Sequence record: PZ445539.1
DNA from: a phage
Strand: one strand, 5' to 3'
Length of the DNA stretch: 37,196 bases
Notes under the pieces: model-generated
What the model saw: only the letters and a program-made list of their open reading frames with translations
Database searches by the model: none
What the model was told of the DNA's origin: nothing
Position numbers and translations under genes: made by a program
Shown here: one piece after another, positions 24,284 through 29,607 of the stretch
Position numbering within the stretch: position 1 is the first letter of the stretch
Layout of the letters: each line of letters opens with the position of its first letter

Positions 24284-24676
24284 TCATACGAAGCGCCTCA
24301 CCGCCAAAGAAGCGACTACCCGACCGTGAATTTTGATATCTTTCAATTCATCAGTGTTGAGGGTGAATGTTTCGTAATGATGGTTGTCAGAAATAATTTT
24401 CAACGAACCACAAATTAATGGCTCTATTCTCTTAATGAACAGGCATGGGCGGCCGAAAACCTCCATCGTATAAACGTAAATGCCAGGAGTGAGCGCACGG
24501 CCACCGCAATCAACGAACGCCACAACCTCACATGGTTCGATGGTCGGTTGCATTGAATCACCTTCCATCCGGCAGCTCTGAACGCGGTTACCAAAGTCGT
24601 TAATATTGTCTGAACCGAACAGCATTCGAGGAGTTTTTATTGGCTGATTAATCGCGATAGCATTTTGCATTTTCAT
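24284..24676 (-). CDS. stand-alone S24-family peptidase-like protein (LexA/UmuD C-terminal domain type)
   Basis: GDSMQPTI serine motif and downstream FIKRI lysine in correct order; 130 aa with no HTH; GAGGAA ribosome-binding site. Confidence 0.6.
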   Translation of the reverse strand: MKMQNAIAINQPIKTPRMLFGSDNINDFGNRVQSCRMEGDSMQPTIEPCEVVAFVDCGGRALTPGIYVYTMEVFGRPCLFIKRIEPLICGSLKIISDNHHYETFTLNTDELKDIKIHGRVVASLAVRRFV

Positions 24677-24736
24677 TTCCTCAGGGTGAGTTTGGCCCCA
24701 CCAAGAAAGGTGTTAATTAAACAATGTTAATTAATT

Positions 24737-25168
24737 TTAAATCTTGTCTGCTTGCTTACAGATGGTTTCTTGCAAGTCATCTAATTTTTCATAAACGATA
24801 GTTAGAGTACCGATAGCCGACAATTCAGGAGGCATACAATCCATAGCGTTGGATAAAGCCATTCTGCAATTGCCAATATCCGCAGACCATGAATTAAGTT
24901 GATTGGAAGTTATAATGCTTGTTGGCTCTGTAAATTCACCACACTGCTCGTTTCCTGAAATGAGCCACAGAACATCAGAATGAAGAATGTTAGCCAATTG
25001 GATTAACTGGTCAGCAAACGGAACAGTTTTCTCCGTTTCCCAGTTGTTAATGGTTTCGGTTGTTAAACCAAGATGATCAGCCAAAAAATCCTGAGACAGT
25101 CGAAGCGAAGATCTTTGATTTAATATTCTTTTGCCGATGGTTTTGGCTACGGTGATTTGAGTATTCAT
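24737..25168 (-). CDS. XRE-family helix-turn-helix transcriptional regulator
   Basis: N-terminal HTH pattern (LRLSQDFLADHLGLTTETINNWE); first gene after the OL-like palindrome; GGAG ribosome-binding site. Confidence 0.7.
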   Translation of the reverse strand: MNTQITVAKTIGKRILNQRSSLRLSQDFLADHLGLTTETINNWETEKTVPFADQLIQLANILHSDVLWLISGNEQCGEFTEPTSIITSNQLNSWSADIGNCRMALSNAMDCMPPELSAIGTLTIVYEKLDDLQETICKQADKI

Positions 25169-25210
25169 TTCATTGGCTCCGTTGTTTGCCGATGAATGAA
25201 CTTTAAGTCA

Positions 25211-25227
25211 TGCAATAACTTATTGCA
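25211..25227. promoter_or_regulatory. OL-like operator: perfect 8-1-8 palindrome
   Basis: TGCAATAAcTTATTGCA; half-site TTATTGCA recurs in the cI-cro intergenic region. Confidence 0.5.
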
Positions 25228-25320
25228 ATAACAAAACTTATTTTTCTTTTACGATTTAGTTTAATGCATTGATTTTTTTGATTAAATTTTGTTATTAAAT
25301 AGCATAGCTTACAGCTATAG

Positions 25321-25350
25321 ACAAAGAAAAAGCCGCTTAAAAGCGGCTTC
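25321..25350 (-). terminator. intrinsic terminator downstream of repressor gene
   Basis: GCCGC-ttaaaa-GCGGC hairpin followed on the minus strand by TTTTTCTTTGT. Confidence 0.6.
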
Positions 25351-25370
25351 AAAAGGTGGGGTGTTGAAGG

Positions 25371-26069
25371 TTAGAGCCTATTGTAATTGATTGATTCATG
25401 CATTATGGCTTTACCCATCACGTAAAGGTCATCTTGGTTTTCTTCCGTGATATACCATTTCTCATATGCCGGATTATCCGATAAGACTGCTAGCCTGTTT
25501 CCCTGCATCTGGAGACGTTTTAGGTGAAATGTTTTACCAAAAACAAACACATACACACCATCCGTTAGAAAGTGTCGGACGGAAATGTCTACGAAGACAC
25601 GATCACCGGAATTAAATGTGCTGGCCATGCTGTCGCCATTGACGGTCATTACTTTTACGACATCTTCACTACGATTCCCGAAAAGGGATTTTGCATGTTG
25701 AGTCGTAAACTCAATAGCGTGTAAAACCTCCACATATTCTGAAAGCATGAACGTGCCAGGCCCTGCACTCACTGCAAGGTCAAGAACCTCGACCCTGAAT
25801 ATGCCAGCGTTATCCTTTACCTCCCTTTCGGGCATGGTCTCTATCACATAGCCCTGTCTATGAGGCACATGATTTTTTCCAGTTGATAGCCATTCAGGGC
25901 TCACACCCAGCGCATTAGCAATCTCAACCAACTTACGTGTTGTGTTGGTTTTGCCTGCAACAAGACGCCAGATAGCTGGTTGCGAAACCCCAACTTTCAT
26001 CGCTAATTCTGCCTGCGTAAGGCCTGCGTCAACCATCGCTTTTTGAAGACGATCTGAGAATGTGTTCAT
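25371..26069 (-). CDS. cI: CI-like repressor (HTH plus S24 autopeptidase domain)
   Basis: Start placed at internal Met (MNTFSDRL...) to clear the operator region; N-terminal HTH; C-terminal S24 domain with GDSM serine and later KRLQ lysine; divergent from cro. Confidence 0.85.
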   Translation of the reverse strand: MNTFSDRLQKAMVDAGLTQAELAMKVGVSQPAIWRLVAGKTNTTRKLVEIANALGVSPEWLSTGKNHVPHRQGYVIETMPEREVKDNAGIFRVEVLDLAVSAGPGTFMLSEYVEVLHAIEFTTQHAKSLFGNRSEDVVKVMTVNGDSMASTFNSGDRVFVDISVRHFLTDGVYVFVFGKTFHLKRLQMQGNRLAVLSDNPAYEKWYITEENQDDLYVMGKAIMHESINYNRL

Positions 26070-26083
26070 ACCAATAAGCCTAT

Positions 26084-26170
26084 ACAAAAAGTTATTAAGT
26101 GGCAAATACGATAAGTTATTGCATAAAGTTATTCAAGGCTATACTCTTTCCCTATGTTCAATAACTTTTG
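26084..26170. promoter_or_regulatory. OR-like operator/promoter region between cI and cro
   Basis: Four copies of core AAGTTATT/AATAACTT (26089, 26113, 26126, inverted at 26160), one forming ..AAGTTATTGCA matching the OL palindrome half-site. Confidence 0.5.
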
Positions 26171-26178
26171 GTATTTTT

Positions 26179-26406
26179 ATGATCAATCAACATGTCAAGA
26201 GAGCTATCGATATTCTCGGCGGCCAAGCTGCATTAGCAAGAGCGTGCGGGGTTACTCAACCGGCTGTATTTCGCTGGCTTAATGGTAGCCGGGTTAAGGC
26301 TGATCATGTCATGTCCATTGTTAAAGCTACTGGTGGCGAAGTTAAAGCCTACCAGATCCGCCCAGACCTTCCAGATACATTCCCGCACCCGGGTAATGGG
26401 GTGTGA
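26179..26406 (+). CDS. cro: Cro-like HTH regulator
   Basis: About 75 aa from the internal ATG; HTH pattern (GGQAALARACGVTQPAVFRWLNG); divergent from cI. Confidence 0.7.
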   Translation: MINQHVKRAIDILGGQAALARACGVTQPAVFRWLNGSRVKADHVMSIVKATGGEVKAYQIRPDLPDTFPHPGNGV

Positions 26407-26407
26407 C

Positions 26408-26617
26408 ATGTCACATCCAATCACTACCGAAAACCAAGTTAAGCCCTTGGATATCGATTATCGCGATCCGCGCGGTGTGATTGTGCATGTCACCGGCTGG
26501 AATCGTGATAAGCAGCAGGTGTACTTCACCAGGCAGAATTACCCGCATGAATGCATGCAGCCTGTTTGGAAGTTCCAACAATATTTTACGAAGGTCTCGG
26601 AGGCGCAAAATGCGTGA
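26408..26617 (+). CDS. hypothetical protein (occupies cII-like position)
   Basis: 69 aa from ATG 26408; no recognisable motif. Confidence 0.35.
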   Translation: MSHPITTENQVKPLDIDYRDPRGVIVHVTGWNRDKQQVYFTRQNYPHECMQPVWKFQQYFTKVSEAQNA

Positions 26618-27632
26618 TTACGGAAAGGTGTCTCCTCACTTCTGGATTGGCAGAACAGGAAAAGAGCTGCGTCAGGCCGGGCCAGAGTCTCAGCTTGTGG
26701 CTTTGTACCTGCTTACCAATCCGCACGCCAATATGATCGGTCTTTATTACATGCCCCTTGCGTTCTTGTCTCATGAGACTGGATTAACCATTGAAGGGGC
26801 TAAGAAGGGGCTTAATAGCGCCATTAAAGCCGGGTTTTGCAAGTACGACGAGCATTCCGAGATGGTGTGGGTCATAGAAATGGCAACGCATCAAATCGGC
26901 GACGCCCTGAAACCAGGAGACAAGCGCTGCGTTGGAGTGCAGAACGAATACAACAAAGTATCAGATAACCTCTTTCTTTCAGAGTTTTACGAGAAATATT
27001 CGAAGCAGTTCAATATGACATTTCCCCGTAGCAGTGAACTCCAGATCCCGGATGTAAATGAAGGGGCTTCGAAGGGGCATCCAAGCCAAGAGCAGGAACA
27101 GGAGCAGGAGAAAGAACAAGATAAAAATACTTTGTCCGATTCGAATCGGACCGATGGCGATAAATATGACGAGTCGAAAGGTAAACCTGCACAGGAAAAA
27201 CCAGATTCAGAATCTGATGATGCTGAAGAACCAGATCCAGTCGATGCCGCTTTCGAAAATATTTTTTGGGGCGCAGGCCTGAGGAAGGATGCCAAGGTCA
27301 AGGCCAAGTCAGCGTTCAGAACCAAATATCGCGACTGGAAAAAAGCGAACCGCGGTACGCCTGATAACTTCGCCGTTATGCTGGCAGAAGATATTAGCCT
27401 CCGTGTGAAAGCTCAGCAAATGGGGATCGACAAACTACTGCCAGCGTCATACCTGAACGGTGAGCGTTGGAACGATGAAAAACCACAGGGCGGCCCTCAG
27501 ATTTCCGCATGCACAAACGTTGCTGGTGGTGCAGGAGCTTCCTGGTACGCCAAACCCAATGACGGTTCGGCTGAGGTGTTTATCAGCCAGGCAGCCATTG
27601 ACCGTATGAAGCGCGGAGCTAACCGCCCATGA
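26610..27632 (+). CDS. putative replication initiation protein / replisome organiser
   Basis: 340 aa from ATG 26610 with GGAGG ribosome-binding site; acidic EQ-rich linker (SQEQEQEQEKEQDK); occupies lambda O position; iteron-like repeats inside the gene. Confidence 0.55.
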   Translation: MRDYGKVSPHFWIGRTGKELRQAGPESQLVALYLLTNPHANMIGLYYMPLAFLSHETGLTIEGAKKGLNSAIKAGFCKYDEHSEMVWVIEMATHQIGDALKPGDKRCVGVQNEYNKVSDNLFLSEFYEKYSKQFNMTFPRSSELQIPDVNEGASKGHPSQEQEQEQEKEQDKNTLSDSNRTDGDKYDESKGKPAQEKPDSESDDAEEPDPVDAAFENIFWGAGLRKDAKVKAKSAFRTKYRDWKKANRGTPDNFAVMLAEDISLRVKAQQMGIDKLLPASYLNGERWNDEKPQGGPQISACTNVAGGAGASWYAKPNDGSAEVFISQAAIDRMKRGANRP

Positions 27633-27735
27633 AAACCATCCTCAAACGTCTATTGGTTGCTGGCTATAACCGCGGATTACTGCGTGAGGAGTTCGTGACT
27701 ATGTGCTTTATCAAATTCGATTTACGGAGTGTGTG

Positions 27736-29607
27736 ATGACCCCTGCTGAGTTATCTGAAAAATTGTGGGACAACGCCGAAAGAGTTGCGAAATACTTGCT
27801 TCCACGAGGACACCTTGAGGGCAAGGAGTGGTGCGCAGGTAATACCAATGGTGATGCTGGTAAGAGCCTGAAAATCAATCTCGGGGGTAAGAAGACTTGG
27901 GCGGATTTTGCAAGCGGCGACAGCGGAGACCTGCTGGATCTTTGGGTGTTGGTGCGTAACTGCCAACTGCACGACGCTATGCGAGAAGCGAAAGAGTTCC
28001 TTGGGCTGAAGGACGACGATAACCACTTTGAGGCAAAGAAAAAGACCTTCTCTCGCCCAACCAAAAAAGGCGTTAAAAAGGCGAGTCATTGCTACGACTA
28101 CCTGGCTTCCCGTGGCATCACCCGTGAGACAGCCGATCAATTCCGTGTTTCGGATGCAGTTGTCTGGTACCACGATGAAAACCGCGAAATTCCGGCAGTA
28201 GCGTTTCCGTATCTTCGCAACGGTGAGCTGTTGCAGGTAAAGCGAATCGGCACTGAACGACCAAATGGCAAAAAGTTGATCATGGCTGAGGCGGATTGCG
28301 AACCATGTCTGTTTGGCTGGCAGGCTATGGACGCGAAAGCCCGAGCTGTTGTGCTTTGCGAAGGAGAGATTGACTGTATGACCTACTCGCAATTCGGTAT
28401 CAGTGCTCTATCGGTACCGTTCGGCGGTGGAAAAGGGGCCAAACAGCAATGGATCGAATACGAGTATCACAACCTCGACCGATTCGAAGAAATTTGGTTA
28501 AGCCTCGATAACGATGATGTTGGGCGCGAAGCTGCAAAAGAAATTGCTCGTCGCCTGGGGGAGCATCGTTGCCGCCTGGTAGAGCTGCCGCACAAAGATA
28601 TCAATGAGTGCCTGACCTCCGGGATGAGCGAGGATGAAATCTGGAACTACTTGGGGACCGCTAAATTCTTCGACCCTGATGAACTCTGCTCTGCGGGTGA
28701 TCTCCTTCAGGAAACACTGGATGCATTCGAGCATCGGGATGTTGGGTTATTTTCCAGCCCGTGGGATTCGCTGAACAGTAATTTTAAATTCCGCGCTGGT
28801 GAGCTGACGCTGGTTAACGGAGTGAACGGTCACGGTAAAACGGAGCTGGTGGGGCATATCGCCGTCAATGCCATGAGCCAGGGAGTTCGCGTATGCATTG
28901 CATCGTTGGAACTTAAGCCTGGGAAAATGTTGGCTCGTCTTACCCGGCAAACCATTTGTAGAAAAAACCCAGAACGAACTGAAATTATCATGACTAACGA
29001 GTGGTTTTCTGATCGTCTTTGGGTGTTCAAGCTCACCGGAACAGCCAAGGCCGGTCGTCTGCTGGAAATATTTGCCTATGCCAGACGCCGTTATGGAATC
29101 GATCTTTTCGTTATCGACAACCTGGCAAAATGTGGACTTGATGAAGAGGACTACGGTGGTCAGAAAGAATTTATCGACACCCTCTGCGACTTCAAAAACG
29201 AGCACAACTGCCATGTTCTGCTGGTAACGCATGCCAGAAAAACAAACGAAGCCGCACCAACAGGGAAAATGGATGTTAAAGGCACTGGCGCTTTAACCGA
29301 CATGCCCGACAACGTTATGGCCGTCTGGCGTAACATCCCGCGCGAACTGGCGCAGCGCAAAGCTGAAAGAATGGGGTATGAGAGCCTTGATAAGGACGAG
29401 CAGACTGCTATCCAAATGCCCGCATCAATGATTCGCCTGTTGAAACAACGTGAAGGGGAAGGCTGGATCGGAGACATAGGAGCCAATTTTGATTCGCGCT
29501 CGCACCAGTTTATCGAAGGTGATAAAGGCCCCTTCAATTACTTGGCCGGCAAACAGCAAAGTGAACTCGATATTGAGTGGGAAGCCACCAACGCAACGAG
29601 GTATTAA
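27736..29607 (+). CDS. bifunctional DNA primase / replicative helicase (Toprim plus P-loop NTPase)
   Basis: Toprim-like motif (LCEGEIDCMTY) followed by Walker A (GVNGHGKT) and DnaB-type RecA-like C-terminus; GGAG before ATG 27736 (an upstream GTG at 27703 is also possible). Confidence 0.8.
   Translation: MTPAELSEKLWDNAERVAKYLLPRGHLEGKEWCAGNTNGDAGKSLKINLGGKKTWADFASGDSGDLLDLWVLVRNCQLHDAMREAKEFLGLKDDDNHFEAKKKTFSRPTKKGVKKASHCYDYLASRGITRETADQFRVSDAVVWYHDENREIPAVAFPYLRNGELLQVKRIGTERPNGKKLIMAEADCEPCLFGWQAMDAKARAVVLCEGEIDCMTYSQFGISALSVPFGGGKGAKQQWIEYEYHNLDRFEEIWLSLDNDDVGREAAKEIARRLGEHRCRLVELPHKDINECLTSGMSEDEIWNYLGTAKFFDPDELCSAGDLLQETLDAFEHRDVGLFSSPWDSLNSNFKFRAGELTLVNGVNGHGKTELVGHIAVNAMSQGVRVCIASLELKPGKMLARLTRQTICRKNPERTEIIMTNEWFSDRLWVFKLTGTAKAGRLLEIFAYARRRYGIDLFVIDNLAKCGLDEEDYGGQKEFIDTLCDFKNEHNCHVLLVTHARKTNEAAPTGKMDVKGTGALTDMPDNVMAVWRNIPRELAQRKAERMGYESLDKDEQTAIQMPASMIRLLKQREGEGWIGDIGANFDSRSHQFIEGDKGPFNYLAGKQQSELDIEWEATNATRY

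Follow-up and report, generated by a model that had tools for sequence, protein, structure and literature searches.

We propose that the segment from 26.79 to 27.15 kb of the DNA analysed here (PZ445539.1, 37,196 bases, hereafter the window) is a lambda-like origin of replication that lies inside the initiator gene of Escherichia phage LMessi and is bound by the initiator, a reading to which we assign a probability of roughly 0.7 from sequence comparison. The earlier note on this DNA had suggested a lambda-like origin within this gene, and the layout supports that suggestion: a winged-helix N-domain, repeats at the domain junction, a purine- and AT-rich tract, a palindrome, and a C-domain that depends on the replication partner. 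In the mechanism we envisage, the N-terminal winged-helix domain would bind near-palindromic 11-bp iterons (consensus GAAGGGGCTTC), probably as dimers, with the iterons one helical turn apart in two clusters, one in the codons of the recognition helix (site A) and one at the junction of N-domain and linker (site B). Occupancy of both clusters would give rise to a nucleoprotein complex that destabilises the adjoining purine-rich (GAGCAG)n / AT-rich tract at 27087–27133, and the C-terminal domain would deliver the phage's own primase-helicase, possibly at the palindrome at 27134–27151. We infer that the initiator is the binder of the iterons and that the region fires as an origin, and likewise where unwinding and helicase loading would take place. 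LMessi has two plus two iteron units, fewer than classical iteron origins, which limits this reading. GC skew follows gene orientation in the window and was set aside as uninformative.

The initiator gene (26610–27632, plus strand, 340 codons) is 100% identical to that of LMessi (PP925823.1; 37,205 bp; isolated on E. coli), and the window corresponds to nearly the whole LMessi genome as its reverse complement. LMessi is a temperate E. coli phage, and its close relatives include phages Fraca (92%) and CharmingMan (89%). On the 5′ side of the initiator gene lies a divergent cI / cro-like switch, followed by a DUF4222 gene (26282–26617) that overlaps the start of the initiator gene by 8 nt. The immunity region (24284–26105) holds two “CI-like” ORFs of the S24-peptidase/HTH type and a further HTH ORF, all on the minus strand (24284–24676, 24737–25168 and 25371–26105), which is more than lambda's single repressor. 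The initiator gene stands immediately 5′ of the replicative primase-helicase, a gp4-like protein with Toprim and DnaB_C domains encoded at 27736–29607 on the plus strand (Pfam Toprim_2, DnaB_C and AAA_25; PHROG 239, E = 1.7e-145) and the presumed partner recruited by the C-terminal domain of the initiator. A 35-codon ORF at 27629–27736 fills the gap between these two genes; it is annotated in LMessi and CharmingMan and lacks annotation in Fraca.

In the domain model, the protein comprises an N-terminal winged-helix domain (residues ~9–140), a linker predicted to be disordered (residues 143–207), and a C-terminal helical domain. A profile search against PHROGs matched it to phrog_1701 (E = 2e-63), labelled “DnaD-like helicase loader / replisome organizer,” phrog_25210 (E = 2.5e-77), and phrog_270 (E = 3.7e-17), labelled “replication initiation protein.” The initiator matched no Pfam family, even at E ≤ 5, and thus none of Phage_rep_O, RepA_N (PF06970) or Phage_rep_org_N; Pfam and PDB sequence searches with the N-domain, the C-domain, and the protein of L010, a relative with a different N-domain, returned nothing relevant. 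Homologues are numerous (1,528 at E ≤ 1e-5), and prophages that carry them are known from Escherichia, Shigella (among them the Stx phages 75/02 and POCJ13), Klebsiella, Acinetobacter baumannii, Ralstonia, and Burkholderiales. The phage records that we examined label them hypothetical protein, DNA-binding protein, primosomal protein I, or replication protein O. When 5,426 complete E. coli genomes were searched by megablast, the initiator gene matched none of them; near-identical proteins are present in assemblies of E. coli O21, Klebsiella, Salmonella, and Enterobacter. The plasmid collection gave seven hits to the initiator, mostly prophages on megaplasmids, and no small replicon. The genes 3′ of the initiator in relatives encode DnaB helicases, IstB/DnaC-like loaders, G39P-like proteins or primase-helicases, and the C-domains of the initiators vary in step with the type of downstream partner, a pattern that is, by analogy, the O/P logic of lambdoid replication modules.

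The octamer GAAGGGGC occurs on the plus strand at 26793–26800, 26804–26811, 27060–27067, and 27071–27078, that is, as two pairs with 11-bp spacing, just as the earlier note had described. The window contains five copies of this octamer against 1.4 expected, and in 300 dinucleotide shuffles we never found the same 8-mer as 11-bp-spaced tandem pairs at two separate places (0/300). The octamer copies are real, but the true repeat unit is a near-palindromic 11-mer, represented in LMessi by GAAGGGGCTAA and GAAGGGGCTTA at site A (26793–26814, plus strand; codons 62–68, EGAKKGL) and by GAAGGGGCTTC and GAAGGGGCATC at site B (27060–27081, plus strand; codons 151–157), which starts 267 bp downstream of the start of site A. 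The 11-mer consensus across relatives is TcGAAGGGGCTTcgAA, and the position weight matrix is the same for the two sites. When mapped onto the initiator model, the codons of site A fall at the start of the predicted recognition helix (helix 3, H3), and site B, the EQ run (residues 160–170), and the palindrome (residues 175–181) are all located inside the linker. Tandem iterons thus stand at the boundary between N-domain and C-domain, site B lying at residues 151–157 where the N-domain model ends at ~140, as they do in 64/64 of the loci rescanned below. The placement of the second pair just before the segment encoding EQEQEQEKEQ also holds, as site B ends at 27081 and the hexamer run starts at 27087. 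One look-alike was rejected: an iteron-like 11-bp tandem repeat with two mismatches at 25328–25355 (AAAAGCCGCTT/AAAAGCGGCTTC) is an unrelated GC-rich hairpin directly 3′ of the cI-like gene (25371–26105, minus strand), and is most likely its terminator.

Two sets of relatives were compared. The first comprised 80 viral and 8 genomic loci found with the whole protein as query and with QEQEQEQE among the search patterns; this pattern biases the set toward loci with an EQ run, and the search was therefore repeated with patterns from an alignment of the N-domain only, containing neither site B nor the EQ run, which yielded 80 more loci. Of the 140 distinct genes, we kept 53 representatives that share less than 85% amino-acid identity. 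In the rescan, all 64 distinct loci have site B followed by a Q-rich hexamer run, which encodes Q-(E/D) in all but one of them, the exception reading QAQAQ.

The comparison indicates that the repeats are kept as DNA. Because the 11-bp period is not a multiple of three, successive octamers are read in different frames, E-G-A and then K-G-L (or K-G-L/H), and an iteron array cannot be a peptide repeat. Codon choice at site A is nearly invariant among the representatives: E62 is GAA in 47/47 (gene-wide use 55%), G63 is GGG in 51/51 (29%), A64 is GCT in 45/52 (21%), K66 is AAG in 49/49 (61%), G67 is GGG in 44/49 (29%), and L68 is CTT in 49/53 (19%). The ratio of observed to expected synonymous entropy is 0.21 at site A, in contrast to 0.93 ± 0.11 in 74 other conserved columns (minimum 0.57), and neighbors as conserved as site A (H55, E56, T57, G58, L59, G75, F76, C77, and Y79) use synonymous codons freely. 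Site B has one to four units in relatives and can lie on either strand (54 exact cores on the minus strand and 19 on the plus), with some loci mixing strands, so that its peptide depends on the strand: EGASKG in one orientation and EAPSKP (EAPSKPLR, EAPSKPLRS) in the other. Close relatives vary synonymously in two of the four site B octamers of the LMessi group (GGG to GGA in CharmingMan, TCG to TCA in Fraca), a point that counts against the origin reading. Distances between sites A and B fall on an 11-bp ladder (39/50 in three mod-11 classes), which we discount as evidence because the choice of the unit with the last exact core in an 11-bp array yields the same ladder. It is close to certain that the repeats form a DNA element under selection, to which a factor encoded by the phage binds.

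Distant lineages change the motif and keep the layout. Three loci whose proteins are 26–33% identical over the first 88 residues (L089, L090, and L091) carry another motif at both sites: GAAGCCTTC in L090 (at +186, +198, and +210, plus seven copies from +462 to +544) and in L091 (at +186/+198 and from +369 to +417), the second cluster in each lying just before the hexamer run, and GAACnGTTC in L089 (at +198 and +429). Almost no copies of either motif occur elsewhere in these 6-kb loci. That sites A and B change together excludes a conserved site for a host factor, and it is the behavior that cognate sites of an initiator should show. Two further loci (L010 and L011) match LMessi in C-domain, palindrome, and primase-helicase and have a different N-domain; in place of GAAGGGGC they carry 11-bp-periodic repeats resembling ACTCACTGA together with a polypurine run, and relatives of the L010-type N-domain, which form a second initiator family, keep their own repeats at the same place. 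The iterons therefore co-vary with the DNA-binding domain of the initiator in the L090/L091, L089, and L010-type cases. We also observed in L010 (2037–2531), and likewise in L011, an HNH-endonuclease-like ORF that opens with the first codons of an LMessi-type initiator (MRDYGKVPSEFW...), which in sequence looks like the remnant of a module swap; the new initiator of L010 starts at 2515, just 3′ of this remnant.

The distribution of the core bears on what its sites do. The 53 representative loci contain 158 exact 9-mer cores, 75 at site A and 73 at site B (148/158); the others lie 24–38 nt upstream of the ATG (seven), near +75 (two), and at +356 inside the gene (one), and the ~286 kb outside each gene's first 600 nt contain a single exact core. 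The upstream copies (–24 to –38, as in L023, L026, L030, L032, and L039, mostly Acinetobacter-type) occupy the position of a promoter or ribosome-binding site; they may form a third cluster of iterons or serve as an operator for autoregulation. Autoregulation is common among initiators, and the 11-mers could be operators of this kind, bound by the initiator or by a repressor-like protein and acting as an intragenic roadblock to transcription, with the true origin elsewhere. We consider this fairly unlikely. It draws on the seven representatives, mostly Acinetobacter-type, that have extra copies 24–38 nt 5′ of the start codon; LMessi, however, has no upstream copy, and a roadblock would have no obvious need for site B to be so firmly coupled to a purine microsatellite. 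An unrelated N-domain family also shows the same layout, which is what origins lying within initiator genes would predict. Origin function does not in any case exclude autoregulation, and the sites could serve both.

The hexamer run that follows site B, (CARGAR)n at 27087–27122 on the plus strand, reads CAAGAGCAGGAACAGGAGCAGGAG and then AAAGAACAAGAT, encodes QEQEQEQEKEQD, and is purine-rich on its top strand. The EQEQEQEKEQ segment within the predicted disordered linker is an uninterrupted 6-bp tandem repeat at 27087–27110 (TRF: period 6), and purines make up 76% of 27084–27133, which places it in the top 0.1% of 50-nt windows. All 53 representatives have such a run (3–12 CARGNN units), preceded in relatives by a conserved cgAAGC, and in 45/50 representatives it starts 11/12 or 22/23 nt past the last exact core of site B. 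Four loci (L063, L068, L075, and L082), all from the biased first scan, read the run in frame +1 as GAGAGA or GTGTGT peptides. Between the run and the palindrome is the short stretch GGAGAAAGAACAAGATAAAAATACTTT (27107–27133; 27 nt, 26% GC), a candidate unwinding region; the GC content of 27107–27136 is 0.30, the 2.7th percentile of 30-nt windows. An AT-rich stretch after the repeats, as previously noted, is therefore present but short, and purine richness is the stronger feature. GC-rich relatives have the purine-rich microsatellite alone and no AT-rich stretch, which, like the shortness of the stretch in LMessi, counts against the origin reading.

Since this junction is precisely where N-domains meet a wide variety of C-domains, the cgAAGC + CARGAR junction and the repeats might instead be a recombination “linker” for shuffling N- and C-domain modules. 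In L010 and L011, similarity to the LMessi protein sets in at residues 166 and 171, in or just past the EQ run, and P0034–P0041 share only the N-terminal 51% of the protein; both observations favor such a linker. We judge this explanation improbable: selection for evolvability cannot account for the frozen synonymous positions of site A, far from the junction, and it leaves unexplained both the covariation of sites A and B and the retention of the motif through strand flips. Lambdoid origins, moreover, are known to exchange modules as a consequence of conserved origin DNA, so that such exchange is no alternative to it.

The palindrome GTCCGATTCGAATCGGAC at 27134–27151 is perfect over 18 bp and encodes (L)SDSNRT in the disordered linker; it had earlier been given as 16 bp near 27135–27150, so that its existence stands and its length and limits are amended. 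It is the only palindrome of at least 16 bp in the window and starts 24 nt past the last base of the uninterrupted run (27110). Taken alone it is not significant in 37 kb, as an 18-bp palindrome arose in 50/300 shuffles; its weight comes from where it lies and from how it behaves in relatives. In relatives it travels with the C-terminal module of the initiator. Some 20 distinct sequences show four single-base changes in all, each of them within the central 4 nt and each altering the encoded residue (S to L, T or A; N to D); the 7-nt arms GTCCGAT / ATCGGAC remain intact, although the disordered linker around them is free to vary. In L115 the palindrome is 20 bp long, and L126 and L127 keep arms of 6–7 nt around a 10–12-nt loop. 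Such a pattern would suit a hairpin, a cruciform or a dimer-binding site. Against the origin reading, single-stranded DNA from 27040–27200 folds with no unusual stability compared with shuffles (z = –0.98).

Structure in a single strand could also involve the iterons, if sites A and B paired in mRNA or single-stranded DNA, in a stem of up to 22 bp, to regulate translation or stability. As pairing would require, most relatives have site B in reverse complement to site A; in LMessi and in 19/73 site B cores, however, the orientation is direct and pairing is impossible, some loci have mixed orientations within site B, no Rfam match was found, and the fold is no more stable than shuffled sequence, all of which makes this explanation very improbable. 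A minor alternative for the palindrome is an intrinsic terminator of antisense transcription, for which the palindrome followed by AAAGTATTTT on the minus strand scores as terminator-like, but such hits in the region are at chance level (3 vs. 2.2 expected) and the T-tract begins 5 nt past the stem. Barely credible is the explanation that the repeats are wholly a by-product of coding for an EGAxKG peptide, as the earlier note had already raised, and for an acidic EQ linker, and have no function as DNA: the E-G-A-x-K-G encoded by both LMessi pairs and the position of site A inside a conserved protein helix agree with it, but it is excluded by the different frames of the octamers in a pair, the synonymous freezing at site A only, the co-change of sites A and B, the occurrence of site B on either strand with different peptides, the hexamer run in another frame in four relatives, and the restriction of the motif to two sites within the ~286 kb searched.

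In lambda ori, direct repeats with internal dyad symmetry precede an AT- or purine-rich tract and an inverted repeat; LMessi has comparable repeats and an inverted repeat, and between them a purine-rich tract with a short AT-rich stretch. As proposed here for LMessi, the lambda origin is located in gene O, at the junction between the DNA-binding N-domain and the partner-recruiting C-domain of the initiator, and in lambda modules too the repeats co-vary with a swapped N-domain. The differences are considerable. The LMessi initiator falls outside Phage_rep_O by sequence; its units are 11 bp, one helical turn apart, vs. 19 bp in lambda, and form two clusters 267 bp apart, the first within the codons of the recognition helix. 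The LMessi-type core is common to Enterobacteria, Acinetobacter, and Burkholderiales, whereas lambda-type repeats diverge between close phages; a hexanucleotide microsatellite takes the place of lambda's AT-rich region; and the partner is a primase-helicase instead of a P-type loader.

RepA_N initiators (pSK41, pTZ2162, and PLE RepA), whose origins also lie in their own genes, combine a winged-helix N-domain with a variable, host- or partner-specific C-domain, an organization that the LMessi initiator appears to share, but the LMessi initiator has no Pfam RepA_N match, and LMessi-type iterons converge on a G/C tract and not on a poly-A tract. Binding repeats inside the initiator's own gene are also known from SPP1 G38P/oriL and the lactococcal replisome organizers. 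These resemble the LMessi system in PHROG label, in having a helicase loader or helicase 3′ of the gene, and in their intragenic repeats; the LMessi family differs in its proteobacterial hosts, in having no detectable Phage_rep_org_N match, and in an iteron sequence, two-cluster layout, and microsatellite of its own. To our knowledge, none of the lambda, RepA_N, and replisome-organizer systems has a counterpart to an iteron cluster that coincides with recognition-helix codons, to strand flips of the second cluster, to one core shared across several orders of Proteobacteria, or to a microsatellite in fixed register with the iterons. We found no description of such an origin, and no experimental work on a member of the family, in the literature on Eru-type Stx phage replication, EQ-repeat initiators, and intragenic iteron origins. 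An intragenic iteron origin is of a kind known from lambda; the repeats are probably the replication origin of LMessi, in a form that is new for this widespread initiator family.

If the proposal of an initiator-bound origin is true, it would provide a precise origin and an iteron consensus for all phages of this initiator family, with arrays of GAAGGGGCTTC followed by a CARGAR run as a signature for annotating origins. It would also explain the module boundary at which the initiators of the family recombine, and would offer a natural system for studying how an overlap between binding site and coding sequence limits the ways in which initiator specificity can evolve.

A bolder reading in two parts is tentative, and we regard it as somewhat doubtful: a self-referential pair of initiator and origin, and a purine microsatellite as an unrecognised origin element. 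In the first part, the DNA that encodes the recognition helix (site A) may itself be a recognition site, so that any change of specificity would have to involve the protein and both sites at once. If true, this would account for a 9-bp core that has stayed the same in Enterobacteria, Acinetobacter, and Burkholderiales, and for the joint change of the two sites and the helix in distant lineages. In the second part, a purine microsatellite in fixed register after the iterons, here (CAGGAR)n, may be a new kind of element for unwinding or single-strand loading, with a logic that may, by analogy, be that of DnaA-trios beside DnaA boxes and go beyond the coding of a linker.

In the second initiator family, the corresponding place is taken by other purine-rich microsatellites, namely (GGAAG)n, (GATACG)n, (GAAACA)n, and (GGAGT)n, and a purine-rich run of short period right behind the iterons is thus a property that the DNA of both families shares; the idea of a microsatellite element may extend to (GGAAG)n, (GATACG)n, and (GAAACA)n of this unrelated family. 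In one member (L184), an extra GGAAG unit ~460–500 nt into the gene causes a frameshift that leaves a truncated initiator of 222 aa. A microsatellite can thus switch such a gene off if its period is not divisible by three, and the truncation in L184 could reflect phase variation, a pseudogene or a sequencing error.
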